Below are positions 4,473-27,658 of a DNA stretch of 45,450 bases, piece after piece. This DNA comes from an uncultured archaeon. GTDB lineage: Archaea > Asgardarchaeota > Hermodarchaeia > Hermodarchaeales > Hermodarchaeaceae. Position 1 is the stretch's first letter, and each line of letters begins with the position of its first letter. A program made the position numbers and the translations under genes. The notes under the pieces were generated by a model, which was not told the origin of the DNA, ran no database searches, and saw only the letters and a list, made by a program, of their open reading frames with translations. The stretch is taken from NCBI GenBank assembly GCA_964347045.1, contig CAYFXC010000007.1:87953-133402 (forward strand). The letters run 5' to 3'.

Positions 4473-4970
4473 ATGAGACAATTTCTCTATGCAGACCCTA
4501 CAGTATGTGTTGGTTGTCGTATTTGTGAGGCAATTTGTAGTTTGCATTGGGAAAAAACAATCAACCCAAAGAAATCGCGAAATCGTGTTCGTCGGGTCGA
4601 TCCAGGGCTTGATGTTGTGGTGGCTTGTCGGAATTGCGACCAAGCATGGTGTATTGAAGCTTGTCCTGAAGAAGCACTGCGTAAAAATCGTAAGGGTATT
4701 GTAATAATTGATACAAAGAAATGCAGGGGCTGTGGGGCGTGTGTTGAGGCATGTCCTTTTGGAGCTATTTTTCTTCATCCGGATTCGCAAAAAGCCATCA
4801 AATGTGTCACGTGTGGATTTTGTACAAAATATTGCCCCGTAGAGACATTGCGCATTTTAACTGATGAGGAATTAGCCGCAATAAAGCAACAGAAAGTGAT
4901 TCAACACGAATGTGGCGATCTCCTTGATGAACTTAGAGTGGAAGAAGAATATAAGACGGGGGAACCATGA
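4473..4970 (+). CDS. Multi-[4Fe-4S] ferredoxin-type subunit (AOR small subunit)
   Basis: CVGCRICEAIC, CRNC....CIEACP, CRGCGACVEACP, KCVTCGFCTKYCP; ATGA overlap with the AOR gene. Confidence 0.9.
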   Translation: MRQFLYADPTVCVGCRICEAICSLHWEKTINPKKSRNRVRRVDPGLDVVVACRNCDQAWCIEACPEEALRKNRKGIVIIDTKKCRGCGACVEACPFGAIFLHPDSQKAIKCVTCGFCTKYCPVETLRILTDEELAAIKQQKVIQHECGDLLDELRVEEEYKTGEP

Positions 4971-6892
4971 TGGCAAAGCGGTCAAAGCTCGGTGGATATG
5001 CTGGACAACATTTGCACGTTAATATGACAAAAGGAACTTGTAAGCCTATTCCAATTGAGAAAGAGTTCGCTCTCATGTATCTTGGAGGGCAAGGATTTGC
5101 TTCACGAATAATGTATGACCGAGTCGGACCTAAAACTGACCCACTAGGTCCTGAAAATATTCTAATTTGGGCAACCGGACCTTTCACAGGAACTTTATGG
5201 CCTCAGGCATCACGTTATGTTGTTGCAGCAAAATCTCCTCTAACCGGTATATTTGGTGAAGCGCATTCTGCGGGTCATTGGGGACCTGAACTGAAATTTT
5301 CTGGATTCGATACAATAGTTATAACAGGAAGAGCGAAGACTCCCAGATATTTATTCATTGACGACGGTTCTGCTAAATTGCTTGATGCCAGTGATTTATG
5401 GGGTCGCAACACAACCAAAACTGAAGAATTAATAAAAGAAATTCATTCTGATCGAAATCTCCGCGTCTCTTGCATTGGACCAGCAGGTGAAAACCTTGTT
5501 CGTTTTGCTGCAATCATCAATGACTATGATCGTGCAGCAGCACGCTCAGGAATAGGCGCTGTTGCAGGAAGTAAACAGCTAAAAGCGGTAGCCGTTCGTG
5601 GAGGACAGGATATTCCCATCGCTAAACCTAAGCGTTACCTTGAGGTCGTCGAGGAATTACACCAAAAAATGCTGGAGAGCCCTTTTACAGCTAATCGAGC
5701 AATGTATGGTACGACAAATTTAGTTGAAATGATGCAAGAAATTGGGCGTCTTCCTAGCTATAATTTGCGTTCAGGTGTATTTGCAGAATATGAGAAAATC
5801 AGTGGTGAAGCCATAAAAAAGGATTATCTGGTTAAACCACGAGCAGATTATGCTTGTTTACAACGTTGTGGTAGATATACTAGGGTCAAAACAGGACCGT
5901 ATGCCTATTGTGGTGGAGCCCCTGAGTATGAAACGCAAGCAGCCATTGGGAGTCGATGTGGTAACGATAACCTTGAATCCATACTTTATGCGCATCATCT
6001 CAGTAACTTATATGGAATGGATACAATCTCAACTGGAGCTACAATTAGTTGGGCAATGGAAGCTTGGGATGAGGGACTTATTACCGCTGAAGACACCGGT
6101 GGAATAGACCTAAGCTGGGGTAACCACGAGTCAATCATTAAACTTATTCACATGATTGCTAAGCGAGAAGGGTTTGGTGATATATTAGCAGAGGGTAGTT
6201 ATCGGGCAGCACAGCGTATCGGAAGAGGTACTGAAAAATTTGTCATGCACAGCAAGAAACAGGAAATTGCAGGTCAAGAACCTCGTGCTCAGAAATCAAT
6301 GGGATTAGCAACTGCAACAGCCGCGCGAGGTGCTGATCATCTATATGCCTTTCCCGTTCTTGATGAAGTTGGATTTGATAAAGAAATTGAAATTCGTTAT
6401 GGAACAAAATATCTTCCTGAGATTGGAGATCGCCTTGACCCAAAATATAAAGGCTTCATGGTGAAAGAAAATGAGGACTTTTGCGCGGTTGTTGAATCTT
6501 TAGGAGTCTGTAAATATGGCACATTAATACCTCCCGTTCTATTCTATGAAGACATTGTGAAGGCTTTTGATGTCACCGTTGGAATCTCAATAACTGAAAA
6601 ACAAATACGCGCAATTGGTGAAAGGATTGTTAACCTAAACCGCTGTTTCAATGTTCGTGAAGGAATTCGTCGAAAGGACGATTCACTACCTCGTCGGCTT
6701 ACTCACACGCCTGCCCCTGAAGGTCCATCAAAAGGTCAAGTTGTCGAATTGAACCAAATGCTAGATGAATATTATGAATTAAGACATTGGCGGTTAGAAG
6801 ATGGATTACCCACCAAACATGTTTTACATCGATTGGGTCTTGACGATTTAATTATCGACCTTGAAAAACATGGTGTAGAATTACCTGAATAA
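4967..6892 (+). CDS. Tungsten-dependent aldehyde:ferredoxin oxidoreductase family protein (copy 1)
   Basis: YLGGQG, KSPLTG, IGPAGEN, GSKQLKAV, PEYET, GMDTIS, RGADHL, LDEYY..R.W motifs. Confidence 0.95.
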   Translation: MMAKRSKLGGYAGQHLHVNMTKGTCKPIPIEKEFALMYLGGQGFASRIMYDRVGPKTDPLGPENILIWATGPFTGTLWPQASRYVVAAKSPLTGIFGEAHSAGHWGPELKFSGFDTIVITGRAKTPRYLFIDDGSAKLLDASDLWGRNTTKTEELIKEIHSDRNLRVSCIGPAGENLVRFAAIINDYDRAAARSGIGAVAGSKQLKAVAVRGGQDIPIAKPKRYLEVVEELHQKMLESPFTANRAMYGTTNLVEMMQEIGRLPSYNLRSGVFAEYEKISGEAIKKDYLVKPRADYACLQRCGRYTRVKTGPYAYCGGAPEYETQAAIGSRCGNDNLESILYAHHLSNLYGMDTISTGATISWAMEAWDEGLITAEDTGGIDLSWGNHESIIKLIHMIAKREGFGDILAEGSYRAAQRIGRGTEKFVMHSKKQEIAGQEPRAQKSMGLATATAARGADHLYAFPVLDEVGFDKEIEIRYGTKYLPEIGDRLDPKYKGFMVKENEDFCAVVESLGVCKYGTLIPPVLFYEDIVKAFDVTVGISITEKQIRAIGERIVNLNRCFNVREGIRRKDDSLPRRLTHTPAPEGPSKGQVVELNQMLDEYYELRHWRLEDGLPTKHVLHRLGLDDLIIDLEKHGVELPE

Positions 6893-7017: not shown

Positions 7018-7695
7018 ATGAAAGTGCTTGTAACAGGACCACACCTCTCAGGAAAAAGCGCCCTTATCAAACACCTAGCGAAGGGTAATGTCATTAACAT
7101 CCAAGCAAATGGAACAACTGTTGGTCTTGATCATGGTGTTGCAGAAGTATTTGGAATTCCAGTCCGCTTATTTGGAACCCCCGGACTTGCTCGTTTTAAG
7201 GTATTACGTCGAATAATTTCAGAGGGGGCCGATGGAATTCTTTTTGTTGTCGATGCCAGTAAACCCGATGGCGACGCTGAAGCCCGATATATATGGACAG
7301 AAATAAGTGACCTCTTACCAAATGTTCCGTGTATTGTCGCAGCAAATAAACAAGATTTACGAGCTGCAAGAACACCGGAAAGAATCCGCCATGATCTAAG
7401 TTTCATGGTCGGAGTACCAGTAATTCCAATTAGTAACAAAACCGAATACAACCTAGATAAGCTTCTTCCGGCAATGGCAATGCTAATTATCTATGAATGG
7501 AGCCCAATTCTACGAGCCTTTGGAGCAACTGGTAAAACCAGCTTTTCAAATCTTGCTAAAAATCTCCATATTAGTGAAAACCAGGTTCGCAACTATTTAC
7601 GCTGGTTTGAGCTACGAAAAATGGTAATAGTGGACTGGGATAAGAAAACCGCACATGTTTCGTCCGGTGTAACAAAGATTCTTGCTCAACGGTAG
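7018..7695 (+). CDS. MglA-like small GTPase with a C-terminal winged helix-turn-helix-like domain
   Basis: GPHLSGKS, TTVGLDHG, LFGTPGL, ANKQD; C-terminal SFSNLAKNLHISENQVRNYLRWFELRKMV. Confidence 0.85.
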   Translation: MKVLVTGPHLSGKSALIKHLAKGNVINIQANGTTVGLDHGVAEVFGIPVRLFGTPGLARFKVLRRIISEGADGILFVVDASKPDGDAEARYIWTEISDLLPNVPCIVAANKQDLRAARTPERIRHDLSFMVGVPVIPISNKTEYNLDKLLPAMAMLIIYEWSPILRAFGATGKTSFSNLAKNLHISENQVRNYLRWFELRKMVIVDWDKKTAHVSSGVTKILAQR

Positions 7696-8532: not shown

Positions 8533-8820
8533 TTATCCTCCACCTATTGGTGGAAATATGGCCACAATATCTCCAGCAGATAGCTTGGTTTGTAATCCTT
8601 GTTGAAGTCTAACATGACGCCCATTAACAAGAACATGAAAGTACGATTTGAGCGATCCGTCTGGCTCCAACACCATTTTTTTAAATTTTTCCCCAAATTT
8701 TTTGCTCAAAATGTCAATGACTTCTTGAACATTTTCCGCTTCTAATTGGATTTCTCTTAATCCTGTCAAAGCCCGTAAGCTGGTAAACATACGCACAGTT
8801 ACTTGTGGTTTTGTCGTCAT
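8533..8820 (-). CDS. MoaD/ThiS/SAMP ubiquitin-like sulfur carrier
   Basis: VLVNGR and C-terminal IAIFPPIGGG; 95 aa. Confidence 0.9.
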   Translation of the reverse strand: MTTKPQVTVRMFTSLRALTGLREIQLEAENVQEVIDILSKKFGEKFKKMVLEPDGSLKSYFHVLVNGRHVRLQQGLQTKLSAGDIVAIFPPIGGG

Positions 8821-8835
8821 TTTTTTCCTATCACC

Positions 8836-10023
8836 TTAACCACTTGTTTCGAAAGATAAAGCGCGATGTGGGCAAATACTTACACAGACACCACAACCAT
8901 AACAGAGATCTAAATCTACTTGGGCTTTCGAATTTTCGGGATTAACAGCAATTGCCGTATAAGTACAGGATTTACTACAAAGTCCACATCCAGAACAGGC
9001 GTCTTCATCCACAGTTGGTGGAAGACTTTCAATGCGAAGAGTTTCAGCAGGCAGATGTTTAAGGGCAACACCACGAACATCAAGCGGTGAATCATGTCCA
9101 TGAGATTTGAGGAATTTGGAGATTTCATTTGCGATACGACCATAAACAGAGTTCCCTTCGAGGATTGCTGCCGTACAAACTTGTACAGCCGTCGCACCAC
9201 ACATGAGGAATTCAATGGCATCTGCACCTGTACTAACACCGCCAACACCAATTACGGGTTTAGAAGTGCCGCGTGCTATATCAGCAACACAGCGGACAGC
9301 AAGCGGTTTGATAGCGGGACCTGACAGCCAACCAACCCCTCCTGGCCCTCCAAGAAGGGGACGCCCCGTTTCGATATCAATATGGAGGCACGGGCCCAGC
9401 GTATTAATCGCGACAAATCCATCGACATACTTGTCTACTGCCTTCGCAAAAATAGTCAAGTCCTTAACATGAGGACTCATTTTAGCAAAGACAGGAATAT
9501 CCACGGCTTCTTTCAGTGTTTTGGCTACTTCGTTAAAGACTTTGGTATCTGTTTCAATATAATGGGTGCTAAATTCAATCCCGTCGACTCCAGCTTTCTC
9601 GACAAGAGGCGCAAGTTTTCGCAATTCATCGGGGGTATAACCAACAGACGCAATGAGAGAAAGTCCAGATTTTTTGGCATGAGGGTATTCATGCTTGAGC
9701 CATTTTTGATATGGCTTATCACTCCATAATTCATGGTTCAATAATCCATACGCACCACGTACATTGATGCGTTCAAAATGTATAATCTGATTTTGCATTG
9801 CTGTTGCTAATAACCATTGACTTTTTCCTCGATCGAGCGTTTGCATATTGGGACGAGGGACCTCCGCGGGCTTCACACTGATTGTTTTTGCTACTAAGCC
9901 ACCAACTCCACCCCGAGCTGCTTCTAAAAGAATCTCTGCATCTCGGCTCGTTGGTCCCGCAGCGGTTAACACCGGATTTCGGAGTGGAATTCCTGCAATA
10001 TCTACATTCAAATTGATTGTCAT
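8836..10023 (-). CDS. Dihydropyrimidine/dihydroorotate dehydrogenase-like FMN protein with a C-terminal 2x[4Fe-4S] domain (PreA-like)
   Basis: LRNP..TAAGP, VAKT, LNHELWSD, AKMSP, AINT, GWLSGPAIKP, GVGG; CSGCGLC..SC and CYGCGVCVSICP. Confidence 0.85.
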   Translation of the reverse strand: MTINLNVDIAGIPLRNPVLTAAGPTSRDAEILLEAARGGVGGLVAKTISVKPAEVPRPNMQTLDRGKSQWLLATAMQNQIIHFERINVRGAYGLLNHELWSDKPYQKWLKHEYPHAKKSGLSLIASVGYTPDELRKLAPLVEKAGVDGIEFSTHYIETDTKVFNEVAKTLKEAVDIPVFAKMSPHVKDLTIFAKAVDKYVDGFVAINTLGPCLHIDIETGRPLLGGPGGVGWLSGPAIKPLAVRCVADIARGTSKPVIGVGGVSTGADAIEFLMCGATAVQVCTAAILEGNSVYGRIANEISKFLKSHGHDSPLDVRGVALKHLPAETLRIESLPPTVDEDACSGCGLCSKSCTYTAIAVNPENSKAQVDLDLCYGCGVCVSICPHRALSFETSG

Positions 10024-11960
10024 TATTTTTCTACCAACTTACCCATTTTTGCAAGTTCATCAGCAACATCATCTAAGCCTAATCGTTTGAGTTCCGAGCG
10101 TTTGGGAAGCCCTTCTTGGGTCCAGTTTCGTACCTCATAGTATTCATCAAGCATCGGATCAAGGTTACAAACCTGTCCTTTTGCTGGCCCATCAGGTATG
10201 GGTTCTTCGGTAAATCGGGGATGAATTTGCTCGTCTTTACGGGTTAAGCCTTCGCGAACATTAAAACACCGTCGAAGGTTACTAATACGTTCAGCAACCA
10301 TCCGTAGTTTTTTAATATCACCAAATTCCTCGATGCCTGTGAGAGGAGCAAGCATTTCGGCAATTATATCAAAGTAGTAGATGGGAGGCCACATAGTTCC
10401 GTATTTGCAAAGGATTAGGCTGTCAACTAGTACATAGAGATCTTCTTGATCCTTGATTAGATGACCTTTGTAAGTCGTACTATGTAAATCCATTACTTCA
10501 GAAGCATGAGCCTCACCAAACCGTTCTATTGCAACATCAGGAAAGCCAAGTTCTTCATAACAACTTAGGCTGCGTAAATGGTCAGCACCACGTACATTTG
10601 TAGCATAGGTTAATCCGACACTCTGTTGAGGGCGCGGATCTTGACCGGAAGCTTCCATTCCTTTTACCTGGATTGCAAACCGTTCTGCGCCCTTTCCAAT
10701 TTTTTGTGCAGCGCGCAAAGAACCTTCTGCAAGTAAATCACCAATCCCTTCTCGGTGGGCAATTTTGTCAACTAGCGTAATGATTGTTTTCTCATTGCCC
10801 CATGATAGGTCGAGCCCATCGGCTTCTCTTGAAGAGATCAACCCATGCTCAGCAGTTTCCATTAAGAACGCAATTGTACAACCTGTGCTAATAGTATCCA
10901 ATCCATAGCGGTTGCAAAGTTGATTAATATAAAGGATCGATTCGACATTACTGTTTAAGCAATTGCTACCAAAGGCCATGATTGTTTCATATTCTGGTCC
11001 TCCGGTTTTAACTTGATAAGGACCAGATTTCACTTGGGATGTATATTTACATTGTAGTGCGCACCCAAAACATGCTTCTCGGCTTGTCCGGTACTTTTTA
11101 CGTATAGTTTCAGGTCCGATGGCTTCTGCGTCTGAAAAAACCCCAGTATTATGATTCTTTGTCGGGAGCCTGCCTATCTCGCCGATCGCCTCAACTAGGT
11201 TCGTTGTGCCATATTTTCCGAGAGATTCTTCGTTCATTTCCCCCCATTTCCCGGTTGTTGTCTGCTCGTAGGCTTTTCGAGCGGCGGCTAAATATTTGCC
11301 ATGAGTTGCTACCTGTACTCCACCAAATCCTCGAGCTGCAACCGCTTTGAGATTCTTACTTCCCATAACAGCCCCTCCACCAGCTCGACCAGCTGCACGA
11401 TAATATGACCCAATAATTGCCGCATATCGGACCTTATTTTCACCTGCTATACCTATAGAAGCAACTTCTATGTCATTGTCTCCTAGCTCTTGCTTAATAG
11501 TATCAGTAGTTTCAGTTGTATCGCGTGTCCAAAGATGAGTGGCATCGTGGATGGTCACATTCTTATCTCGCACCATAAGATATACTGGGTTAGGTGCCTT
11601 GCCTTGAATTACAAGCATATCGAAGCCTGCATATTTGAGCTGTGGTCCCCAATGCCCGCCACAATGGGCTTCTCCCCAGACACCGGTTAGGGGAGATTTG
11701 AATGCAACCATAAAGCGCCCAGAGGGAGAGAAGAAGGCACCAGTAACGGGTCCTACAGCGAAGATTAAGGGATTCTTAGGATCAAATGGATCCGAGGCAG
11801 GTTTTACACGATCCCATAAGATGCGTGAGGCAAACCCAGTTCCACCTAGGTAATTCTTAGCAAAATCTCGATCAAGAGGTAGAACATCGATTTTAGAGTT
11901 TGTCAAGTCGATTTCCGCAATTCGTCCTGCGTATCCATAATACACTGCATCCTTACTCAT
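10023..11960 (-). CDS. Tungsten-dependent aldehyde:ferredoxin oxidoreductase family protein (copy 2)
   Basis: YLGGTG, KSPLTG, GSKNLKAV, CFGCALQC, PEYET, GLDTIS, RGADHL, LDEYY..R.W motifs. Confidence 0.95.
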   Translation of the reverse strand: MSKDAVYYGYAGRIAEIDLTNSKIDVLPLDRDFAKNYLGGTGFASRILWDRVKPASDPFDPKNPLIFAVGPVTGAFFSPSGRFMVAFKSPLTGVWGEAHCGGHWGPQLKYAGFDMLVIQGKAPNPVYLMVRDKNVTIHDATHLWTRDTTETTDTIKQELGDNDIEVASIGIAGENKVRYAAIIGSYYRAAGRAGGGAVMGSKNLKAVAARGFGGVQVATHGKYLAAARKAYEQTTTGKWGEMNEESLGKYGTTNLVEAIGEIGRLPTKNHNTGVFSDAEAIGPETIRKKYRTSREACFGCALQCKYTSQVKSGPYQVKTGGPEYETIMAFGSNCLNSNVESILYINQLCNRYGLDTISTGCTIAFLMETAEHGLISSREADGLDLSWGNEKTIITLVDKIAHREGIGDLLAEGSLRAAQKIGKGAERFAIQVKGMEASGQDPRPQQSVGLTYATNVRGADHLRSLSCYEELGFPDVAIERFGEAHASEVMDLHSTTYKGHLIKDQEDLYVLVDSLILCKYGTMWPPIYYFDIIAEMLAPLTGIEEFGDIKKLRMVAERISNLRRCFNVREGLTRKDEQIHPRFTEEPIPDGPAKGQVCNLDPMLDEYYEVRNWTQEGLPKRSELKRLGLDDVADELAKMGKLVEK

Positions 11961-12463
11961 TCTTCCGCACCTCCCGTGATAACGTGGAGATAATCAGCGG
12001 CCTGTTTCACACCTTTTTGTCGAAGACGATTAGTCAGCTCACTAGGTTTAAGGTACAAGAGGGCTTCTCTGGGGCAAAATTGCGCACACATCGCATAACC
12101 CTTACACAAATCGCATTTTACAGTACGACCATCAGTTGGATCAATATGAATTCCTCCAAATGGACATGCAACAAGACATTGATGGCAACCAATGCAATTG
12201 TCTTGTGTGATGCAAACGGCGTTGGTTTTGTTATCTCGATAAATTGCATCAGCAGGACAACTTTCCATACAGAGAGGTGTATCACAATGCTGACAAATCA
12301 CCGGAATATTAATCCCGCTCTTTTCATCCCGAATTATTGTCAAGAGTGCTCGAGAAGGATTGTATTCCTTGTTATGACGAAATGAGCACACGAGAGTACA
12401 AATACCACAACCTGTGCATTTCTCTGGATCAATAACTAGTACCTTATGAGACAACCTGTTCAT
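11957..12463 (-). CDS. Multi-[4Fe-4S] ferredoxin-type subunit (AOR small subunit)
   Basis: CTGCGICTLVC, CQHC..PLC..SCP, CIGCHQCLVACP, KCDLC....CAQFCP; overlaps the AOR start by 4 nt. Confidence 0.9.
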   Translation of the reverse strand: MNRLSHKVLVIDPEKCTGCGICTLVCSFRHNKEYNPSRALLTIIRDEKSGINIPVICQHCDTPLCMESCPADAIYRDNKTNAVCITQDNCIGCHQCLVACPFGGIHIDPTDGRTVKCDLCKGYAMCAQFCPREALLYLKPSELTNRLRQKGVKQAADYLHVITGGAEE

Positions 12464-12557
12464 GGGAATACACGCTAAAAAAAAGGGGACGTGGAAGCCT
12501 TAAAGGCTTACTCGATTACCATATTCAACGATTACAGTTTGCTAGGAGTGAACAACT

Positions 12558-13889
12558 ATGCGTATATTGATTAAAAACGCAACTATTGTTACAATGGACC
12601 CAAAACGCCGAATTTTAAAAGATTCTGATATACTCATCGACGGTTCAAATATCACAAACATAGGTCCTGACATCAAAGAGTCAGCAGATCATGTAATTGA
12701 TGGATCAGGTCGAATGGTTCTGCCGGGATTCATTTGTGGACATACCCATTTATACGGCATCATGCTCCGTGGAGCACCATTAGATATCAAGCCTACAACT
12801 GATTTTCTTCAAATCCTTGATCGGATTTGGTGGAAAGTGGATTCCGCGTTTGTTAATGAGGACGCCTATGCAAGCGCTCTCGCGTCCTGTTATGAGTTTA
12901 TTCGAAGTGGAACTACGTGTTTTGCCGACACTTACTCCGGTCCCGGATCTATTGAGGGCGTTCTAGATGCTATTGCGAAAGGCGCTGCAGAAGTTGGAAT
13001 TCGCGGGATTCTCGCATTTGAAGCAACTGAAAGGAATTCGAAAAAAGAAGGAGGCCGAGGACTCCAGGAGAATATTCGATTTATCAAGAAGCTCCAAAAA
13101 ACCCCGAACTCACTTCTATCGGGGATGTACAGTTTACATGCATCATTTACTCTCAGTGATGAATTAATTCAAAAAACACGGGAACAAGCGGATAAGCTTC
13201 CAGCCCCGCTTACTATTCATACAAGTGAAGGCCTTATCGATGTCTACCATAACCTCGAGAGATATGACAAACGTACCGTTGAACGTCTCTTTGACCTTGG
13301 AGTTCTTGGACAAGATGTAATTCTTGCCCATTGTGTACATGTTAACCGTGACGAAATGGAGTTGATCAAGGGTAGTGGAGCTTCAGTAGCCCATAATCCA
13401 ATGAGTAACATGAATAATGCTGTCGGAATAAGCCCAGTAAAGGAAATGTATGAGCGTGGTATTCCAATATGTTTGGGAAATGATGGTTTCATCTTCGATG
13501 CCATCGAAAATATTCGCACAGCGTACCTGATCCATAAGGTGCATCATCTCGATACGCGGGTTACAACCCCCCAACAAGTTATCGAAATGGCGACAATTAA
13601 TGGTGCTCAAATTTATGGTTTAAGTAACCAACTTGGATCCATCGAACCTGGAAAACTTGCGGATTTAGTAATGCTCCACCCTAATCCTCGTGTTACACCA
13701 ATTCTGCCTGATGGCGTGTATGGATATATTGTCTATGGTTGTACTGCTCATGATGTTGAACATGTATTTGTCAACGGCAAACAGGTTGTTGATAACCACC
13801 AAGTGGTGTCTGTTCAATCTGAGGTGGTTGAAAAGGCACTAGAACGCGTCGTTCCTATTCTTTGGGAGAAGCTTGGAATTGATATTTAG
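12558..13889 (+). CDS. Metal-dependent amidohydrolase, SsnA-like
   Basis: GHTHLY, LDRIWWKVD, LHASFTLSD, IHTSEG, AHCVHV, HNPMSNMNNAVG, LGNDG. Confidence 0.85.
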   Translation: MRILIKNATIVTMDPKRRILKDSDILIDGSNITNIGPDIKESADHVIDGSGRMVLPGFICGHTHLYGIMLRGAPLDIKPTTDFLQILDRIWWKVDSAFVNEDAYASALASCYEFIRSGTTCFADTYSGPGSIEGVLDAIAKGAAEVGIRGILAFEATERNSKKEGGRGLQENIRFIKKLQKTPNSLLSGMYSLHASFTLSDELIQKTREQADKLPAPLTIHTSEGLIDVYHNLERYDKRTVERLFDLGVLGQDVILAHCVHVNRDEMELIKGSGASVAHNPMSNMNNAVGISPVKEMYERGIPICLGNDGFIFDAIENIRTAYLIHKVHHLDTRVTTPQQVIEMATINGAQIYGLSNQLGSIEPGKLADLVMLHPNPRVTPILPDGVYGYIVYGCTAHDVEHVFVNGKQVVDNHQVVSVQSEVVEKALERVVPILWEKLGIDI

Positions 13890-13897
13890 TTGAGAGA

Positions 13898-14179
13898 CTA
13901 ACCCCCAGCTACTGGAGGAAAGAGTGCTATAGTATCACCATCTGAAAGCTGGGTATCAAGACCTTGAAGAACATGAAGTCCGCGACCATTTACGAGAATT
14001 TTAATATACCGCCGTAATTGTCCTTCATCATCAAAAACTGTATTTTGGAATTTTCTTCCTTGTTCTTCACATAATTGATTTAAAAGATCAAGAACTGTCC
14101 GACCTTTGAAATTCACTGTAAGCTGCTGAAATCCGAACTGTTCAGTAAAGGGGCCGATCGTACGAACAAGGACATACAT
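13898..14179 (-). CDS. MoaD/ThiS/SAMP ubiquitin-like sulfur carrier (second paralog)
   Basis: ILVNGR and C-terminal IALFPPVAGG; ATG at 14179 preferred over the ORF-track start at 14197. Confidence 0.9.
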   Translation of the reverse strand: MYVLVRTIGPFTEQFGFQQLTVNFKGRTVLDLLNQLCEEQGRKFQNTVFDDEGQLRRYIKILVNGRGLHVLQGLDTQLSDGDTIALFPPVAGG

Positions 14180-14296
14180 CGTAAGAGCTCTCCACACACG
14201 GCAAATGTCCTGCTACACAAAAACCTGTTGGTATCCTTACTCACTGATAATGCCAATCCTTAATAGGAGAGAGAAGTAAGCTCACTGCTGATTTTA

Positions 14297-15715
14297 ATGG
14301 CAGATTTGATGATAGATGGTGCTACCGTCGTAACTGTGGACCCACAACGCCGAATTATTTCGGATGGAGCAGTGGTTGTGGAAGACCAACGTGTTATTGC
14401 TGTTGGAAAATCTCACGAAATCAAACAGAAATTCAATGCCGATACGCGTATTTCCGGAAAACATAAAATCCTAATTCCCGGTCTTATCGACTGTCACATA
14501 CATCTAGCTCAGGCGCTTATTCGTGGAACAGCAGATGATGTAGATCTTATTCCATGGCTCCGCGATTACGTATGGGTTTTACAAGGAAACTTTACTCCAG
14601 AAGATGGCAAGGTCAGTGCTGAACTTTGTATCGCGGAGATGCTCAAATCAGGTACAACGAGTTTTCTCGAGAGCATGATACACAAACGTTATGGTTTTGA
14701 GGGTATTGCTAAGGTAGTCGAAAAAACAGGTATTCGGGGTTGTCTTTCAAAGCTCTTCATGGACTGGACTGGTTACGCGGACGAAGAATCAATCATGTAT
14801 GAGGGAATGATCGAAGATCCTGAGGAGTGTATTGCAGAAACACTTGCGATGCATAATAAATGGCAGGGAGCAGCAGATGGTCGGGTATTTATTTGGTGGG
14901 GAGCCCGTACTCCTGGCGCTGTCAGTCCTAAGTTATATCGCCGTGTTGCAGAACTGTCGAAGAAACGACATATGAGAATTACCATGCACCTCGGTGAAGT
15001 GAAAGAAGACGTAGAATACACGAAATCTCACTTTAATCAACTACCTGCAGAGTTCGCTCAAGACGTAGGAATGATGGGCGAAAACGTCGTTTTAGTGCAT
15101 GGTGTATGGATTAGCGCCAAAGAGTTTCCCATTTATGCTGAGACCGGTACTCACATGTGCCATTGTCCAGCTAGTAATTCGAAGCTGGCATCAGGCATCG
15201 CACCTATTCCCGAGATGATAAATGCAGGAATCAATGTCTGTTTGGGCTGTGATGGTGGACCAAGTAATAACGCCTATGATATGTTCCGTGAAATGTTTCT
15301 CGCTGCGGTAATCCATAAAGCACGTACCTTGGACCCGTTAACAATGCCTGCGGAAACGGTTTTGGAGATGGCTACTATAAATGGTGCCAAGGCAATCGGG
15401 CTTGAGAAGGAAATTGGAAGCATTGAAGTGGGAAAGAAAGCTGATTTGGTGCTGATAGATACGACTCACTTAAACCTCGCTCCCACTTATAACCCGGTAA
15501 GTAATATCATCTATGCTGCTAATGGCTTCAATGTTCATACTACAATTGTTAATGGACAAATCCTTGTCCATGAAGGTAAACTACTAACTTTGGACAAAGA
15601 GAAAGTTATTGAGAATGCTAGGGAGCGAGGACAACAATTATTGGATCGCGCGGATGTAAAAATTCAAAGCCGATGGCAAAAAAATAAAGGCGGCTTTGGA
15701 TTAATTCGCAATTAA
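14297..15715 (+). CDS. Metal-dependent amidohydrolase (MtaD/AtzA/TrzA-like nucleobase deaminase family)
   Basis: DCHIHL, LKSGTT, MHLGE, VHGV, HCPASNSKLASG, LGCDG, MATINGA. Confidence 0.9.
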   Translation: MADLMIDGATVVTVDPQRRIISDGAVVVEDQRVIAVGKSHEIKQKFNADTRISGKHKILIPGLIDCHIHLAQALIRGTADDVDLIPWLRDYVWVLQGNFTPEDGKVSAELCIAEMLKSGTTSFLESMIHKRYGFEGIAKVVEKTGIRGCLSKLFMDWTGYADEESIMYEGMIEDPEECIAETLAMHNKWQGAADGRVFIWWGARTPGAVSPKLYRRVAELSKKRHMRITMHLGEVKEDVEYTKSHFNQLPAEFAQDVGMMGENVVLVHGVWISAKEFPIYAETGTHMCHCPASNSKLASGIAPIPEMINAGINVCLGCDGGPSNNAYDMFREMFLAAVIHKARTLDPLTMPAETVLEMATINGAKAIGLEKEIGSIEVGKKADLVLIDTTHLNLAPTYNPVSNIIYAANGFNVHTTIVNGQILVHEGKLLTLDKEKVIENARERGQQLLDRADVKIQSRWQKNKGGFGLIRN

Positions 15716-15731
15716 TTAGGGTGACTCTAAA

Positions 15732-16799
15732 ATGGGGGCTGATATTGTTGGTAAATATCATGGTCGTGACTGGTTGACTATCCAAGAATGGACCCAAGAA
15801 GAGCTGCAAACATTGATTGAAGCAGCAATCGAGATTAAGAAAATACAAAAGGCACGAAAACCACACGATTATCTTCTCAGGCAAACGTTATTCATGATTT
15901 TCTTCAATCGATCATTAAGAACACGAAACTCCTTCGAAGCAGGTATGACGCAGATGGGGGGTCATGCTCACTTCCTTTCTCCTCAAGATGTTTATCGACC
16001 CGCATTACCAGACGATGAAGAAGCATATACGAGTGAACGGATTTCAGATGTAGCGCGAGTACTTGCTCGGATGGGTGATGCTATCGCTATTCGAATTTAT
16101 GGATCTCATGCTAAATGGATTTATGGTCGTGGTCATCGAGTCCTCCGAGAATTTGCGAAATGGTCGAAAGTTCCTCTCATAAATATGGAAGATGACGTCT
16201 ACCATCCGTGCCAAGCCCTAGCGGATATGCAAGCGATTCAAGAACACTCGCCGAAAGTACAAGGAAAGAAGTTTGTCATGAGTTGGGCTTACAGCCCCAG
16301 TATGAAGAAACCACTCGCCGTTCCCCAAAGCGGAGTTCTAATGGGCACTAAGTGGGGAATGGATACTGTGCTTGCGCATCCCAAAGGCTTTGAATTAGAT
16401 CCTAAAATAATTGAAATGTGTGAAAAGAATGTCGCCGAGTATGGCGGCTCCTTTGAAATCACCAATGATATGGAGGAAGCGTTTGCAGGTGCTCATTATG
16501 TATACCCGAAATGTTGGACAAGTAAGCATCATATTCCTCCTATTGCACCTGCAGAAGATTGGAAAGGATGTAAGAAGCTCTTCGATGCAAATAAGGATTG
16601 GATTGCAACACCAGAAAAAATGGATCTTGGAGAAAAGGATGTCAAATACATGCATTGTCTACCCGCTGACCGAGGATTCGAAGTAGCCGATGAAGTACTG
16701 GATGGAAAATGGAGTATCGCTTTTGATGAAGCAGAAAATCGGCTTCATGCTCAGAAAGCGATAATGGCAGCAATTATGGGTGAACCCAAGAAAGTGTAA
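15732..16799 (+). CDS. Carbamoyltransferase, YgeW/N-acylornithine (knotted) type, paralog 1
   Basis: SLRT, HPCQ, SWAYSP, KPLAVPQS, YPKCW, MHCLP, EAENR; lacks the OTCase DxxxSMG motif. Confidence 0.85.
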   Translation: MGADIVGKYHGRDWLTIQEWTQEELQTLIEAAIEIKKIQKARKPHDYLLRQTLFMIFFNRSLRTRNSFEAGMTQMGGHAHFLSPQDVYRPALPDDEEAYTSERISDVARVLARMGDAIAIRIYGSHAKWIYGRGHRVLREFAKWSKVPLINMEDDVYHPCQALADMQAIQEHSPKVQGKKFVMSWAYSPSMKKPLAVPQSGVLMGTKWGMDTVLAHPKGFELDPKIIEMCEKNVAEYGGSFEITNDMEEAFAGAHYVYPKCWTSKHHIPPIAPAEDWKGCKKLFDANKDWIATPEKMDLGEKDVKYMHCLPADRGFEVADEVLDGKWSIAFDEAENRLHAQKAIMAAIMGEPKKV

Positions 16800-16808
16800 T
16801 TAGAGTGT

Positions 16809-17828
16809 TTAAAGTAAATTCTCATCACTCATTACTAGTGATAGGAGCCCTTTTTGCAGATGTAAACGGTTCTCGGCTTGATCAAAAATAACGCTTTGAG
16901 GGCTATCAACGACTTCATCCGTTGCCTCTTCGCCGCGAAATACGGGAAGGCAGTGCATAAAGATGGCGTCTTTATGCGCTAATTCCATGAGTTCAGAATT
17001 ACAAATCCAATCACGGTATTTCTCGTGGAGTTGAGCTTCAGTGTCTTCACCCAACTTATCGATGCCAACAGCGGAGCATTCAGCACTCATCCAAGACCGA
17101 GGATAAACCACATGAGCATCTGAATAACCTTCTTTGACATCATTTGTGATTGAAAATGCACCACCTGATTCATTTGCGTTTAATTGGCACCAATCGATAA
17201 CCTCAGGATCTAGTTCAAAACCAGGTGGATGGGCGAGAGTTACATCCATCCCGAATCGTGTAGCTGTTAATATTGCACTTTGGACACTACACCATGACCG
17301 AGAATGGCGACTGTAGGCCCAAGAAAAGAGGAATTTCTTCCCTTGGATTTTCGAGAAGTTTTCTTGTACCGTCATGAGATCAGTGAGTGATTGACAGGGA
17401 TGGAATTTATCGTCAGCCATATTGATGATGGGAATATCCGACCATTTCGCATAATCACGAAGAACTTGGTTTCCACGTCCATAGACATAACCAACCGCTT
17501 TTTCGAGAATTCGAATTCCGATGCCATTCCCATATCGGGCTAGTGTATTAGCTGTATCTTTTACACTTTCACCTTCTCCAAGCCGCATTGCACTCGGCTC
17601 AAGAAATTGAGCATGACCCCCCAGTTCTGTTAATGCAGCTTCAAAACTGGCACGGGTTCTAGTGCTTGTGTTGTAAAATAGCATGAAAAAGGTTTTATCA
17701 GCCAGAAGGTGTGGAGATTTTCCTGCCTTAGTCTTTTTTTTCAAATCTTTTGAAAATTTTAGGACCGCTTCAAGTTCTTCCCGAGTCCACTCTTGAGTGG
17801 TTATCATATCTCTGCCACGAAGATCCAT
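16809..17828 (-). CDS. Carbamoyltransferase, YgeW/N-acylornithine (knotted) type, paralog 2
   Basis: STRT, HPCQ, SWAYS, YPRSW, MHCLP, QAENR; start moved to ATG 17828 (MDLRGRD aligns with paralog 1 and avoids overlapping tatD). Confidence 0.85.
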   Translation of the reverse strand: MDLRGRDMITTQEWTREELEAVLKFSKDLKKKTKAGKSPHLLADKTFFMLFYNTSTRTRASFEAALTELGGHAQFLEPSAMRLGEGESVKDTANTLARYGNGIGIRILEKAVGYVYGRGNQVLRDYAKWSDIPIINMADDKFHPCQSLTDLMTVQENFSKIQGKKFLFSWAYSRHSRSWCSVQSAILTATRFGMDVTLAHPPGFELDPEVIDWCQLNANESGGAFSITNDVKEGYSDAHVVYPRSWMSAECSAVGIDKLGEDTEAQLHEKYRDWICNSELMELAHKDAIFMHCLPVFRGEEATDEVVDSPQSVIFDQAENRLHLQKGLLSLVMSDENLL

Positions 17829-20579: not shown

Positions 20580-21869
20580 TTAACTGTGTTTCGTTGTTAC
20601 ATTCTTTAAATTTTGCAGTTTTAGAGCAGATTGGAGTTGTTCAATGTCTGGGTCAATTACAGGAGGTGTTGATACACGTTGAATTACAATATCTTGATCT
20701 TTAAGCCCGCCGCCCGTAGCCTCGATGAGTATGGTCTCTGAGGGGTCTTGGACTCCGGATTCAAGTTGATTAATCAGACCGGCAAGCCCAGTAACTCCTG
20801 TTGGCTCAGCAAAGATTCCTTCATATTTTGCTAGTAATTGTTGGGCTTGCAGAATCGCATCATCATCTACTGCAATAGCAGAACCTTCAGATTCCCGCAC
20901 GGCTTTAAGCGCTAGATCACCATCCCAAGGAAGCGGGTCACATAATCCTTCAGCCACACTATGAGGAGAGGCACAGGGAATAATCTTGAAAGGATCTTGG
21001 TTAGTGTGGTAAGCTTGAACAAGCGGTGCGCACCCGGTGGCTTGGACAGCGAGCATACGAGGGCGATTTTTCACAAATCCGAGTTTGTGGAATTCAGTGA
21101 AACCGCGCCATTGGCCACCGAGGAGTCCTCCTGCGCCCACTTGAACATAGGCGATATCAGGAACATTCCAGTCAAGTTGTTCGATGATTTCATACCCAAG
21201 GGTTTTGGGACCTTCAGCTTGGTATGGATTAAAGGGACCGAAGCTTGGACAGGGTGTCCATCCGTACGCTGCACAAGCTTCACGAAGGAGTTTGACGGTT
21301 GGGTCGTCTCCTTTATGTAATCCGCGGAGGCGTACAACTTTAGCCCCATATAGGAGTAATTGAGCGATTTTCCCCATGGGTGCGATGTCAGGTACGAAAC
21401 AGTAGCACGTAAATCCAGCACGTGCACAATAAGCAGCTAAAGCCGCAGCAGCGTTACCACTACTTGCTGAAACGAGTGTAGTGGCACCTTGTTCCTTAGC
21501 TTTGGATACACCAACTGTCATAGGGCGATCTTTAAACGACCATGTAGGATTTCGTGTCTCATCCTTGATGTATAATTCACGAAGCCTTAGGTGTTCAGCA
21601 AGGCGTTTACTACGAATTAAAGGGGTTCCACCCTCACCTAAACTAATTATGTTTGCCTTGTCTGCAACCGGCAATAATTCGAAATAACTCCACACACCAA
21701 GAGGACGCTTAGCAATTATCTTCTTAGAAAGAACTTCCCTGAGTTGTGTATAATCATAAAATACATCGATACGTGCTTCACACTCATTGGTTTTACAAAA
21801 TATTGGATTCTGAGAGAGATTATATTCAGTACCACATTTGGGACATCTCAAATGGGTTACGTAAGACAA
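20580..21869 (-). CDS. thrC: Threonine synthase-like fold-type II PLP enzyme
   Basis: CPKC, LGEGGTPL, NPTWSFKDR, ASSGNA, EGPKT, EGIFAEP; substrate not certain. Confidence 0.8.
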   Translation of the reverse strand: MSYVTHLRCPKCGTEYNLSQNPIFCKTNECEARIDVFYDYTQLREVLSKKIIAKRPLGVWSYFELLPVADKANIISLGEGGTPLIRSKRLAEHLRLRELYIKDETRNPTWSFKDRPMTVGVSKAKEQGATTLVSASSGNAAAALAAYCARAGFTCYCFVPDIAPMGKIAQLLLYGAKVVRLRGLHKGDDPTVKLLREACAAYGWTPCPSFGPFNPYQAEGPKTLGYEIIEQLDWNVPDIAYVQVGAGGLLGGQWRGFTEFHKLGFVKNRPRMLAVQATGCAPLVQAYHTNQDPFKIIPCASPHSVAEGLCDPLPWDGDLALKAVRESEGSAIAVDDDAILQAQQLLAKYEGIFAEPTGVTGLAGLINQLESGVQDPSETILIEATGGGLKDQDIVIQRVSTPPVIDPDIEQLQSALKLQNLKNVTTKHS

Positions 21870-22749: not shown

Positions 22750-25700
22750 GTGGTTTCCAAGCGGTCTATAGTGGCAGCTATCTCCGCAGCTATCATTCTA
22801 ATGCTAATTCTAAGTTTTCTTTTACCCCTTCTGTTTTTGCCTTCAATACCTCGCCAAAAGCCTTATGATGATGTCGAGGATTGGGGAACTGGGGTGACTG
22901 TTGAAGGGGGAAATGATACTTTCCTCGATAATATCACACTTGATGATGTCACCTTAGATTTGAATTGGTCAATCAATCCTTCATTCATAGTCGCTATCGT
23001 TTCACCTGCTGAACCACCCCGTTATTGGCGAAATACTGCTTATGATCGCTACCTGGGAACCGATTGGGAAAAGAGTTCGAATAATGCCCAACCGCTTGTA
23101 GGTGTAAATCCCGGAAGTGAAATTGTTTATACTGTTACTCAAAACATCACAAATCAAGGTGTGACCGGAACCTACCCACTCCTATCCCTGTGGCCAGATC
23201 CATTAATCATTAGTAACTCTCTTCAATTTCCACATCTTTCGACTCCTAGTTCCTATAGTTTGGAAGTTGATGATTTTGGTACAATGCTCTTTAATGGATT
23301 ATTTGACCAAAATGGAACTGCATCTTTGCAGTATCAAGTTACTTATATTCCTCGAAATTGGACACTGATTCGGCCACAATCGCTTTCAGCTAGTTCAACT
23401 CCTGGTGCTATTCTTGCGCAATATCAGCAACAGGGACTTAGTTTTATGACTCCATCCACCCGTTCCGATGTGCAAACGCGGCTATCTACGATTCTGGCAG
23501 GAGTACCCAATACTGCTTTTGAACAGGCTTTTGCGATTCAAAATTATTTCAAGGCAAGCTTTGCCTTCGACCCCTTTGCTCCGAGACCTGGCGCAAGTGA
23601 TGAGCATGTCGAATGGTTTCTCCAACAAGGTGGAGGCATCGGCATCGATTTTGCCACCGCGTATACGATGTTTCTCCGAGAAGCAGGAATTGCCGCGCGA
23701 CCAGTGTTTGGAGTGATACTTGGAGAAGACCAGGGAACACAAAGAGTACTTCATCTGATGCACATACATTTCTGGGTCGAAGTGTATATTCCCACGGCTA
23801 CGCAAGGATATTGGATCCAATTTGATCCTACTCCCCTACCTAGCTTCATCACAGATGGCAGTCCCCCACCAATACCTTCGCCATCAAATAGTGTTCCAGA
23901 TCCAGTCGTTCCCGATGAAGACCCATACGTTGTGAGCACCTATTTCAATCTCACAATCAATGTTACTCCGTTAATTGTCAATCGGGGAGAAATATTCCAA
24001 ATTACTGCTATTCTCACCCAAGACGGAGCTCCCCAACCAGGAGAGACCATTTTCTTCTACGACGCAACAGAACAATGGTTCTTAGGAAGTAATGTAACAT
24101 CAGTACTTGGAGAAACAAGTATAACATTTGATTATAATGATTCAGCTCTTGTCGGTTTTCACTTGCTTCGTGCTGAGTTTAGTGCGTTAAGCTCATATAA
24201 TGTAGTCGCCCTTCGTGGCGGAGCCAATCTATCGCTATCAGTAACTCCGTTTGAAGCCAATCGAAGTGCGTTTGTTCATATTAATGGTACTTTGATAGAC
24301 GCAGTTAACGGAAGAGGAATCTCTGCTAATGAAACAGGTTACATAGGAGTTAGTATATTATTCAATTCTTTCATTGCCACAGAACCACTTACTGATATTA
24401 ATGGACGCTATGTTGTGGACTATTCCATCCCCCTCTCTCAGGCACCCTTGGGCCCAACTTCAGTTCAAGCGACTTTTTCAATTCCCACCATCATTAATCC
24501 AACCTCTAGCACCATTGAAATTCTAAATGTAACTGCCACATCACAACTCACAATTCAAGCCATTCCAAATTCTATTCGCCAATACAGCAATACTACAGTT
24601 CAAGGAAGATTACGATATGATAATGGAACGGGAATCGCAGGAGAATCAATTCAGCTTTTCTGGAACGGAACATCCATCGGCGCAGTAAACACCGATAGTG
24701 CTGGCTATTATTCTATGCAGTACAATGCCACACCTCCGGTTGGACAAGTCACCATAGACGCTGAATTTCTTGGCATTCAATATGTGTATGGTTCAAAAGC
24801 GTCAAATATTGCGCTTGTTCATGACGAAGGTACAATTGCAATTTTTGTTGACGACGATGATGGTGATGATATTACACAACGAGGAAATACCATATTCTTT
24901 TCGGGCTGGGTAGAAGATTCTAACGGGACACGTCAGGGAGGAGTAACTGTTCGCATTTACTTGAATGGGACACAAGTTGTTTCTACTGTGACCTTTACTA
25001 ATGGCTCATTCTTTATCAGCTATCCGCTGGTAGCAACTCAACCAGTCGGTGTACGAGAAGTAACAGGTGATATTGTTCATCCGACATTAGTGGTCATTTC
25101 GAGTTTTGATTACTTCACGATTAATTCGTCAACACAAATCAGGAACTTAATGGTTGATTTTTCCCCTGTGATGCTTGGAGAAACGGTCACACTAACTGGT
25201 CAATTGGTTGATGACCAAGGAAACGGGCTTTCAGGACATGATCTTAATATTGAAATTTCATATCTAGCCGTATCTTTTCCTGTGGGAACTCTAATCACTC
25301 AATCGGGAGGCACTTTTTCATTCGTTTTAATAATTCCAGCTAGTGTTCCCACAAGTGTTTCTACGGTTTCATTTGATGTTACGTATTCAGGAACCGTATA
25401 TTATGGAAGCAGCTCTGACTCTGAGCTTTTTGATGTGTTTTCAAACGCTACATTACTGATTGATGTACCATCTGGCCCCTTTGCATGGAATGCGAGTGTT
25501 TTAGTTAACGGGACGCTTGTGGATAACTTTGGACGTGCTTTACCAAACCGTGATATCCGGTTATTTGTTAATGGAACTAACATCATTTCTACTGCATCAA
25601 ATCAATTTGGCCAGGTGGGTTTCGTGCTCAGATTCGCTCCTTCAGGAATAAACGATATTTCTTATGCTCTTCAGCTTCGGCACGAAACGATAATTACCCT

Positions 25701-27652: not shown

Positions 27653-27658
27653 ATAACA

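Follow-up and report, generated by a model that had tools for sequence, protein, structure and literature searches.

The 45,450-nucleotide stretch of DNA analyzed here, referred to as the window, spans positions 87953–133402 of contig C7 in a 2.58-Mb metagenome-assembled genome (MAG) that is 88.9% complete, and whose nearest relatives are Hermodarchaeota, 'Promethearchaeota' and Thorarchaeota MAGs. It carries a gene cluster arranged around an SsnA-like amidohydrolase and enzymes of the AOR family. A first-pass annotation had placed nine genes between positions 8533 and 17828 and read them as a candidate purine/ureide degradation pathway, and all nine are present there with the domains it described. 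On the minus strand, an operon opens with a polyferredoxin gene (11957–12463, 168 residues; Fer4_11 and related families), followed by its partner, an AOR-family enzyme of the cluster-linked clade B (10023–11960, 645 residues; AFOR_N and AFOR_C), a DHOD/DPD-superfamily FMN protein with two C-terminal [4Fe-4S] clusters (8836–10023, 395 residues; DHO_dh and Fer4; hereafter the flavoprotein) and, as its final gene, a MoaD/SAMP1-type sulfur carrier of 95 residues (8533–8820). The tight coupling proposed for this operon was borne out, with the Fe-S stop and AOR start overlapping by 4 nt (ATGA) and the AOR stop and flavoprotein start by 1 nt. Divergent from the operon, on the plus strand, is the SsnA-like gene (12558–13889), after which come a second MoaD-type carrier of 99 residues (13898–14197, minus strand), a deaminase-type amidohydrolase (14297–15715, plus strand; TRZ/ATZ, DadD and 8-oxoguanine-deaminase-like, with the best models all below cut-off) and two convergent carbamoyltransferases of the OTC superfamily, the AOTC/YgeW-like CT1 (15732–16799, plus strand) and the OTC-like CT2 (16809–17828, minus strand). 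The longest open reading frame (ORF) of CT2 begins at TTG 17999 and runs into the start of a TatD gene (17905), and because CT2 orthologues are 339–349 residues long, its true start is likely the ATG at 17828.

The cluster probably extends past these bounds on both sides. Upstream are a polyferredoxin of the 4x[4Fe-4S] type (4473–4970, plus strand; Pfam Fer4 families) and its partner, an AOR-family enzyme of the cluster-linked clade A (4967–6892, plus strand; AFOR_N and AFOR_C), which lie apart from the core, with genes for a small GTPase and GGGP synthase in between. Downstream, beyond TatD and GlmS genes, lies a ThrC-like fold-type-II pyridoxal phosphate (PLP) enzyme belonging to a cluster-associated clade (20580–21869, minus strand). 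HyuA, YgeY and carbamate kinase are not among the genes of the window, as the first-pass annotation had stated. The remainder of the window consists of housekeeping genes, with no tRNA genes found in it and no nucleobase transporters among the window ORFs screened.

Eighty loci around SsnA-like homologues (numbered L) were retrieved with 10-kb flanks each, their ORFs were annotated by comparison with the window proteins, with a Hecatella locus and with the ygeW-xdhD region of E. coli, and neighbors were counted in the 66 loci of at least 10 kb. All of the compared genomes are MAGs, and gene absences are therefore provisional throughout; the trees are quick searches, for which the support values are SH-aLRT only. 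The complete gene order is retained at 81–88% protein identity in around 12 Hermod/'Promethearchaeota'/Thor MAG loci, and partial gene sets recur in at least eight further archaeal lineages. The SsnA-like protein has thousands of relatives, and those with 50–59% identity come from Hadarchaeota, Bathyarchaeia, Caldarchaeum, Nitrososphaeria and Desulfurococcales, as well as from Baldr-, Heimdall- and Hecatella-type archaea. Its most frequent neighbor is a hydantoinase (40/66 loci, mostly in divergent orientation), followed by the DHO_dh/Fe-S protein (33, immediately downstream in Hadarchaeota), carbamoyltransferases (21), a ThrC-like PALP (18), the deaminase-type amidohydrolase (17), AOR (14), carbamate kinase (9) and the XDH-family large subunit (8).

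Some of these loci are particularly full. In Desulfurococcales, locus L051 carries on a single strand the genes for the deaminase, CT2, CT1, carbamate kinase, the SsnA-like protein, the flavoprotein, a PALP and an M20 peptidase; the Hecatella locus has a PALP, PreT and PreA, carbamate kinase, hydantoinase, CT2, CT1, the SsnA-like gene and an Fe-S plus AOR pair, and locus L106 has the entire set plus three Fe-S plus AOR pairs. The reciprocal search agrees with this, as six of the seven sampled homologues of the clade B AOR (54–59% identity, on long contigs) have a flavoprotein of the same type, lacking the catalytic Cys discussed below, within 5 kb. The same six contexts contain orthologues of the window deaminase (51–56%), hydantoinase, MoaD and another Fe-S plus AOR pair, and some add a nucleoside ABC transporter (Bmp), PRTase, ADSL or nucleoside-kinase-type genes. 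The gene arrangement is beyond chance. The first-pass annotation had made its reading depend on co-occurrence of the genes in related genomes, and such co-occurrence is seen across several archaeal phyla, the SsnA-like neighborhoods being conserved between them in the 80 loci.

The arrangement invites comparison with the bacterial reductive route of uric acid breakdown, which was reconstituted in two 2025 preprints (bioRxiv 10.1101/2025.05.19.654654; 10.1101/2025.04.24.650524). In that route, XdhD/XdhAC turn urate into 2,8-dioxopurine, YgfK or C. difficile UacX (PF01180, with no FAD domain) dearomatizes the ring reductively, SsnA and HyuA open the rings, the ureido groups are removed by YgeW (phosphorolytically, coupled to carbamate kinase and yielding ATP) and by YgeY, and diaminopropionate is converted to pyruvate by YgeX (bioRxiv 10.1101/2025.05.19.654654; 10.1101/2025.04.24.650524). 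The bacterial clusters have SsnA as their marker, YgeW as a PF00185 protein and an XDH-family enzyme; that of E. coli comprises xdhD-ygfM, ygfK, ssnA, hyuA, ygeW, yqeA and ygeY, together with ygeX, and the C. difficile variant has UacX and UacY (bioRxiv 10.1101/2025.05.19.654654; 10.1101/2025.04.24.650524). The archaeal SsnA-like neighborhoods contain the kinds of gene by which one of the preprints recognizes such clusters, namely a dearomatizing reductase, hydantoinase, carbamoyltransferase and XDH-type enzyme. The parallel drawn in the first pass is upheld by the co-occurrence, in archaea, of the cluster genes with those for a hydantoinase, a carbamate kinase and a PLP enzyme.

For the SsnA-like protein, SsnA is the top model (NF005540, 391 bits with a cut-off of 444; TIGR03314, 374 against 455.5), around 95 bits ahead of the runner-up at 296 bits. 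In the amidohydrolase tree the family forms a clade of 24 rows (support 97), whose sister clade (99) holds a second Hadarchaeal paralogue together with E. coli SsnA, the sole characterized SsnA in the tree; the two clades unite at 99 to the exclusion of the deaminase-type amidohydrolases and GuaD. The designation as SsnA-like is therefore sound as far as relationship by model and tree is concerned, but the protein falls outside SsnA proper, in a sister paralogue family. The Hadarchaeal paralogue that does belong to SsnA proper adjoins a YgfK homologue or PreT and PreA, the YgfK homologue (40% to E. coli YgfK, about 1,040 residues) being found in L028:12457-17119 and L037:6284-10949. This pair of YgfK and SsnA proper abuts a trio of hydantoinase, SsnA-like protein and flavoprotein, giving two parallel modules of reductase plus amidohydrolase per locus. 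The deaminase-type amidohydrolase of the window separates from the SsnA clade in the tree, and its orthologues (51–56% identity) flank the clade B AOR in Thorarchaeota-type loci.

The flavoprotein had been described as PreA-like. Its architecture of a DHO_dh domain with two [4Fe-4S] clusters agrees with that description, but the score, the active site and the partner do not: the PreA model NF006183 gives 192 bits against a cut-off of 335, the N-x-S-C-P catalytic loop of PreA, DPD and PyrD is replaced by E-F-S-T-H and a 12-residue deletion in all five lineages examined, and no PreT gene is present in the operon. Its nearest solved structures, DPD and DHODH, score just 84–94 bits. In architecture and gene context it matches a UacX-type reductase, with DHO_dh and Fe-S clusters, no FAD/NAD domain and a gene encoded with that of an SsnA-like protein, which it adjoins in Hadarchaeota and Desulfurococcales and from which it diverges in the window. 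Orthologues at 49–62% identity lie beside SsnA-like or clade B AOR genes in other phyla. Look-alike protein clusters in the Atlas that combine DHO_dh and Fer4 domains, of around 365 residues and from Bacillota, are a lead only.

The two small proteins that the first pass named SAMPs do exceed the SAMP1 cut-off and end precisely in a free Gly-Gly, yet they are best read as MoaD-type carriers, known companions of AORs, that would serve tungsten-cofactor synthesis with no need for a role in SAMPylation. The first (8533–8820, C-terminus ...FPPIGGG) scores 78.5 bits on TIGR01687 (cut-off 49.5) and 67.4 on SAMP1 (cut-off 60), and the second (13898–14197, ...FPPVAGG) 64.2 and 68.6 bits, respectively. 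Strict adjacency of MoaD genes to those for AOR and ferredoxin has been described previously, with the MoaD genes viewed as probable tungsten-cofactor helpers (Iyer, Burroughs & Aravind 2006, PMC1779556; Makarova & Koonin 2010, PMC2948915). The window resembles that published arrangement in having Gly-Gly-ending beta-grasp proteins in or next to an AOR operon with a 4Fe-4S ferredoxin gene, and departs from it in no essential respect, although its second copy is set apart from any AOR gene. In L024 and L089 a MoaD gene stands between the Fe-S gene and the AOR of a third clade, C, and it is in Baldr and L089 that the counterpart of the second window carrier occupies this position. In several close relatives, both MoaD-type proteins have 2–25 residues beyond the Gly-Gly (L006:5919-6263, L014:5913-6263, L015:833-1135, L008:11329-11622 and others), and some of these extensions may be effects of ORF calling or assembly.

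The window genome encodes 10 AOR paralogues, and in the AOR tree three of them fall into cluster-linked orthogroups, clade A (4967–6892, support 100), clade B (10023–11960, 99) and clade C (a copy on contig C11, 100), which together make up a single clade that excludes six further paralogues in the genome. The clade C enzyme has its own Fe-S gene, and no pathway genes were found in its context on C11. The clade A AOR is 61–65% identical to AORs beside SsnA-like genes in L019, L024 and L032, and orthologues of its polyferredoxin adjoin SsnA-like genes in Hecatella, Baldrarchaeota and Nitrososphaeria loci; the clade B polyferredoxin has 16 Cys that are invariant across seven orthologues. Membership of the family is clear from PF02730 and PF01314 (427 and 259 bits), and it is from this membership that tungsten is inferred as the metal, as the MoaD genes do not tell W from Mo. 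Characterized AORs (Pf AOR, FOR, WOR5, BamB), like AOTC and UacX, were compared by PDB scores only and are not in the trees. By these scores the nearest structures to clades A and B are 9MQX (455 bits), 1AOR (420–443; 420 for clade B) and AorB 8C0Z (384–403), with FOR, WOR5 and BamB much lower.

Across the 66 SsnA-like loci, AOR is present in 14 and XDH in eight, and no locus has both. In Caldarchaeum the genes for SsnA, XdhB, XdhC, XdhA and CT2 are contiguous, and where Caldarchaeum has the XDH genes, the Asgard, Baldr, Hecatella and Nitrososphaeria loci have an Fe-S plus AOR pair beside SsnA. The window genome gave no match to PF02738 and no tblastn match to XdhA, XdhD, XdhB or YgfM, and no XDH-family genes were found in two of its relatives, the Baldr genome or the Nitrososphaeria genome. 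All five genomes examined from the class of loci with neither enzyme have XDH-family genes elsewhere, and any AORs in them reach at most 48% identity to clade B. Counted by lineages rather than by genomes, the exclusive distribution of XDH and AOR is suggestive but short of conclusive.

CT1 and CT2 represent two pan-archaeal orthogroups (support 95 and 97), and both had been named YgeW-like. On the YgeW models NF005538 and TIGR03316 they fall far below the cut-offs of 453 and 500, with 155 and 150 bits for CT1 and 174 and 162 for CT2, and the YgeW structure 3Q98 scores only 147–156 bits, under AOTC and OTC. The top PDB match of CT1 is instead the AOTC of Xanthomonas (3KZC, 229 bits) and that of CT2 the OTC of P. 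furiosus (1A1S/1PVV, 237 bits); the AOTC model NF003384 (cut-off 288) gives 292.8 for CT1, marginally over, and 271.5 for CT2, and OTC models give 247–280 bits for the two against cut-offs of 281–306. What remains of the YgeW likeness is in CT1, which carries the YgeW-type proline-rich loop WAYSPS..KPLxVPQ, YPKSW and HCLPAD, motifs that AOTC may share, no AOTC sequence being in the alignment; of the YgeW-type motifs CT2 has YPRSW only, and no proline-rich loop. A first carbamoyltransferase tree had placed E. coli YgeW with CT1 and CT2 (support 90), but the orthology it implied was discounted, as that tree had long branches and no AOTC, SOTC or PTC references, and the PDB and hidden Markov model scores favor AOTC/OTC. 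Like AOTC and P. furiosus OTC, both proteins have the motifs for carbamoyl phosphate, S-T/L-R-T-R, HPxQ and HCLP. They differ from them in lacking the DxxxSMG ornithine loop, which is present in E. coli ArgI and in the ArgF-like protein on contig C22 of the window genome, in forming orthogroups apart from the OTC of the genome, and in their catabolic context. On sequence grounds, CT1 and CT2 would be neither OTC nor YgeW orthologues.

That the carbamoyltransferases might prove to be ornithine or acetylornithine biosynthetic enzymes had been raised in the first pass, and a housekeeping OTC or ATCase role is disfavored, the genome having its own separate ArgF-like and PyrB-like genes. In other archaea CT2 adjoins carbamate kinase or XDH, and this context of carbamate kinase, SsnA-like protein and XDH/AOR argues against a role in arginine biosynthesis. 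This bears on the possibility that the genes have no shared function at all, with a generic AOR operon and its MoaD, salvage deaminases and biosynthetic (acetyl)ornithine carbamoyltransferases brought together as chance neighbors. The bare passing of the NCBIfam AOTC cut-off by CT1 would agree with it, as would the generic nature of MoaD–AOR pairing, the abundance of AOR paralogues in the genome and the interspersed GTPase, GGGP synthase, TatD and GlmS genes. It is difficult to reconcile, however, with synteny at 50–65% protein identity in at least eight archaeal lineages, found in both search directions, with a bona fide DxxxSMG OTC elsewhere in the genome and with the linkage of CT1 and CT2 to carbamate kinase in other phyla, and such a chance assembly, already disfavored, is very improbable.

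The ThrC-like PLP enzyme is 48% identical to the PALP embedded in the Hecatella cluster and groups with cluster-embedded PALPs (support 85), apart from the canonical ThrC clade. Its score of 206 bits on ThrC lies within the 190–231 bits of cluster-type paralogues, as against 271–347 for canonical copies in genomes that have both. An identity as a cluster-type paralogue is favored by these comparisons, and the enzyme is an uncertain candidate for the functional counterpart of YgeX. Searches of the genome for carbamate kinase and hydantoinase, as suggested in the first pass, found both. The carbamate kinase, on contig C18, is over cut-off at 374.8 bits and 48.7% identical to YqeA. It is encoded (C18:6115-8169, L087) divergently from a PLP enzyme of the Ser/Thr-dehydratase type (threo-3-hydroxyaspartate ammonia-lyase model, 427 bits with a cut-off of 452), which offers another possible candidate for a diaminopropionate-type lyase, though with no demonstrated link to the cluster. 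The hydantoinase, a dihydropyrimidinase/hydantoinase on contig C13, scores 504 bits and is 38.6% identical to E. coli HyuA.

The hydantoinase gene lies in a classical reductive pyrimidine-degradation cluster (C13:18800-29800, L086:4846-15799), together with genes for a true PreA (440 bits), a class-III aminotransferase, a C-N hydrolase similar to N-carbamoylputrescine amidase and an M20 deacylase; a PreT gene was not seen beside this PreA. The cluster of the window is thus not the only nucleobase route of the genome and, because of this separate pyrimidine cluster, is less likely to be the one for uracil and thymine. The question of substrate is broader than this, as the window genes might act on some other N-heterocycle or ureide, whether pyrimidines, hydantoins or xanthine, the last by direct hydrolytic ring opening as in the classical fermentation of purines by clostridia. 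The position of the SsnA-like protein as a paralogue rather than an orthologue of SsnA proper, the rebuilt active-site loop of the flavoprotein and the existence of XDH-type clusters that function without the flavoprotein all speak for a different substrate, as do Thorarchaeota-type loci with AOR, flavoprotein, deaminase and hydantoinase that have no SsnA-like or carbamoyltransferase genes nearby and adjoin pyrimidine/nucleoside genes (thymidylate kinase, nucleoside deoxyribosyltransferase). Against it, two carbamoyltransferases and a PLP enzyme suit the purine route, with its pair of ureido groups and its diaminopropionate end, XDH-family enzymes beside SsnA-like genes in other archaea indicate purines, and pyrimidines are already provided for on C13. 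A substrate of another kind seems rather improbable.

Taken with the bacterial route, the locus is probably an archaeal cluster for nucleobase/purine catabolism with ureide phosphorolysis, in which carbamoyl phosphate would yield ATP. It may well be, by analogy, the Asgard (Hermodarchaeota-type) version of a pan-archaeal anaerobic cluster for purine-type N-heterocycles, one that follows a 2,8-dioxopurine-like logic with Fe-S plus AOR pairs replacing XDH/XdhD. In the scheme that we infer, as regards substrates, direction of electron flow, metal and AOR chemistry, amino-purines would enter through the deaminase-type amidohydrolase, and the Fe-S plus AOR pairs (two in the window, the third on C11) would take the place of Mo hydroxylases of the XDH/XdhD type in adjusting how oxidized the ring carbons are, with their polyferredoxin subunits as the link to ferredoxin and the co-translated flavoprotein. 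The flavoprotein would then dearomatize the ring by reduction, the SsnA-like amidohydrolase would open it, and the hydantoinase encoded on C13 might open the second ring. Two ureido groups would be removed phosphorolytically by CT1 and CT2; the presence of two carbamoyltransferases, the link to carbamate kinase and the lack of YgeY would fit phosphorolysis of both groups. Carbamoyl phosphate would be converted to ATP by the carbamate kinase on C18, the leftover diamino acid would be handled by the ThrC-like enzyme, and the two MoaD-type proteins would serve tungsten/molybdopterin cofactor synthesis for the AORs.

The part assigned to the AORs is the boldest step of this scheme. Enzymes of the AOR family carry out aldehyde/acid chemistry, with the benzoyl-CoA reductase BamB as the exception, and to our knowledge hydroxylation and dehydroxylation of purines have so far been seen in the XDH family only. 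Direct action of the AORs on the heterocycle would be plausible, though rather less likely than not. A more tentative proposal still is that the three orthogroups are all purine/N-heterocycle (de)hydroxylases replacing XDH in several archaeal lineages, at least one of them in complex with the Cys-less flavoprotein so that (de)hydroxylation at the W centre and ring reduction at FMN are electronically coupled, with two ATP per purine possible.

Several observations weigh against the purine scheme as a whole. Clades A and B are around 40% identical to the classical broad-range AORs (9MQX, 1AOR, AorB), and the equivalents of Glu313 and His448 and the CxxCxxxC...C ligands of the [4Fe-4S] cluster are kept in the alignment to 1AOR; because the catalytic Glu/His and all cluster ligands are retained, these sequences do not demand chemistry other than that of aldehydes. 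Neither XDH nor AOR is found within 10 kb in 44 of the 66 loci, and Hecatella has both an SsnA-adjacent AOR (clade A only) and eight XDH-family genes. Genomes with XDH-type archaeal clusters lack the flavoprotein genome-wide, and for this reason the XDH-type and AOR-type clusters may run different chemistry. The flavoprotein itself is without the catalytic Cys loop of PreA, DPD and PyrD. The substrate of the archaeal SsnA-like family may differ from dihydro-2,8-dioxopurine, because the family is a sister paralogue of SsnA proper and Hadarchaeota carry both. No YgeX and no cluster-linked YgeY homologue were found in the window genome, where YgeY has a single relative, a generic M20 peptidase encoded on C13 (26%), and the hydantoinase sits inside the pyrimidine-type cluster. 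Finally, the ThrC-like gene could be a housekeeping threonine synthase, because no other gene of the ThrC family exceeds the cut-off in this MAG, which is 89% complete.

A nucleobase cluster in which the AORs nevertheless keep to ordinary aldehyde/acid chemistry is an alternative, in which they would feed low-potential electrons through the polyferredoxin to a flavoprotein that has no PreT or FAD-NAD(P)H partner, an arrangement that we take to resemble AorA-AorB feeding AorC in Aromatoleum. The overlaps that join the Fe-S, AOR and flavoprotein genes are what such an arrangement would lead one to expect, and the flavoprotein lies between Fe-S plus AOR pairs in four lineages (Baldr, Nitrososphaeria, L089 and L106) in addition to keeping company with clade B in the reciprocal contexts. 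The conserved aldehyde-type Glu/His and the classical AORs, including AorB 8C0Z, as nearest structures point the same way, and a classical DPD-type reductase is found in the cases that do have a PreT-type partner (Hecatella, some Hadarchaeota). However, the flavoprotein is present without a nearby AOR in Hadarchaeota and Desulfurococcales, the clade A AOR of Hecatella stands beside SsnA without the flavoprotein, up to three AOR orthogroups per cluster exceed what electron input needs, the bacterial pathway has no known aldehyde, and both the exclusive XDH/AOR pattern and the missing XDH genes of AOR-type genomes would be left unexplained. Aldehyde chemistry alone is considered unlikely. A role of the AORs as an electron-input module and their replacement of XDH-type enzymes are not mutually exclusive readings; the operon structure is equally compatible with electron donation to the flavoprotein, whilst AORs in place of XDH are favored by the exclusive pattern, by their equivalent position, by the presence of several orthogroups and by the known route having no aldehyde.

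If the replacement of XDH by AORs is correct, it would widen the catalytic range of tungstoenzymes and account in part for the large AOR sets, mostly unassigned, in Asgard, Bathyarchaeia-related and other sediment archaea. Nucleic-acid bases would also join the substrates that these abundant anaerobes ferment for ATP via carbamoyl phosphate. The cluster offers a defined gene set for biochemistry (Fe-S/AOR/flavoprotein, SsnA-like, CT1, CT2 and ThrC-like) and supplies uncharacterized sister families of SsnA, YgeW/AOTC and DPD.

A few other features of the genome were observed in passing. A Ras/Arf-like small GTPase is encoded at 7018–7695, directly after the clade A pair, and another on C11 (L095:11970-12515) is divergent from the clade C Fe-S plus AOR pair; the adjacency to two of the three cluster-type pairs may be a coincidence in a GTPase-rich Asgard genome. 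The region 22750–31245 of the window, with a TgpA-like transglutaminase (1,170 residues, Ig-like domains), DUF4350, a MoxR AAA+ ATPase, DUF58/VWA and an unassigned protein of 421 residues, is a BatA/MoxR-type cluster unrelated to the purine-type cluster. The glycine-cleavage P-protein subunits GcvPA and GcvPB are encoded at 34322–37266, downstream of the cluster and 12.5 kb from its last gene; classical clostridial purine fermentation has glycine as an end product.

In the literature searched, no paper describes a variant of the purine cluster that is archaeal or based on AORs, and a paper on Asgard archaea of wetlands merely mentions many unclassified AORs. Compared with AOR sensu stricto (1AOR; AorABC 8C0Z; 9MQX), the window enzymes have the same two-domain fold with the catalytic and cluster-binding residues already described, and, as with classical AORs, a four-cluster Fe-S partner upstream and a MoaD-type gene in the operon. 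They differ in their modest identity, in forming three orthogroups specifically tied to nucleobase-catabolic genes and in their proposed substrate, a putative heterocycle. The likeness to AorABC of Aromatoleum extends to a third redox subunit downstream, in a position analogous to AorC, but where AorC binds FAD and NAD, the window protein is of the FMN-containing DHOD/DPD type.

The bacterial 2,8-dioxopurine cluster and that of the window differ at several steps. The window genome has Fe-S plus AOR pairs in the slot of the XDH-family enzyme, its SsnA-like sister paralogue is 29% identical to E. coli SsnA, and its flavoprotein lacks the DPD/PreA catalytic Cys loop. Two carbamoyltransferases, neither of them a YgeW orthologue, are present in a cluster without YgeY, the PLP enzyme is ThrC-like instead of YgeX, and the carbamate kinase and hydantoinase are encoded on separate contigs. 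The two nevertheless have much in common, including an SsnA-family amidohydrolase as the anchor, an FMN/Fe-S reductase of the DHO_dh type that has no FAD domain and is like C. difficile UacX in architecture, OTC-superfamily carbamoyltransferases with a carbamate kinase in the same genome, a purine-type deaminase comparable to the guaD of the E. coli cluster, a fold-type-II PLP enzyme, and a hydantoinase that is encoded elsewhere in the window genome and within the cluster itself in other archaea.

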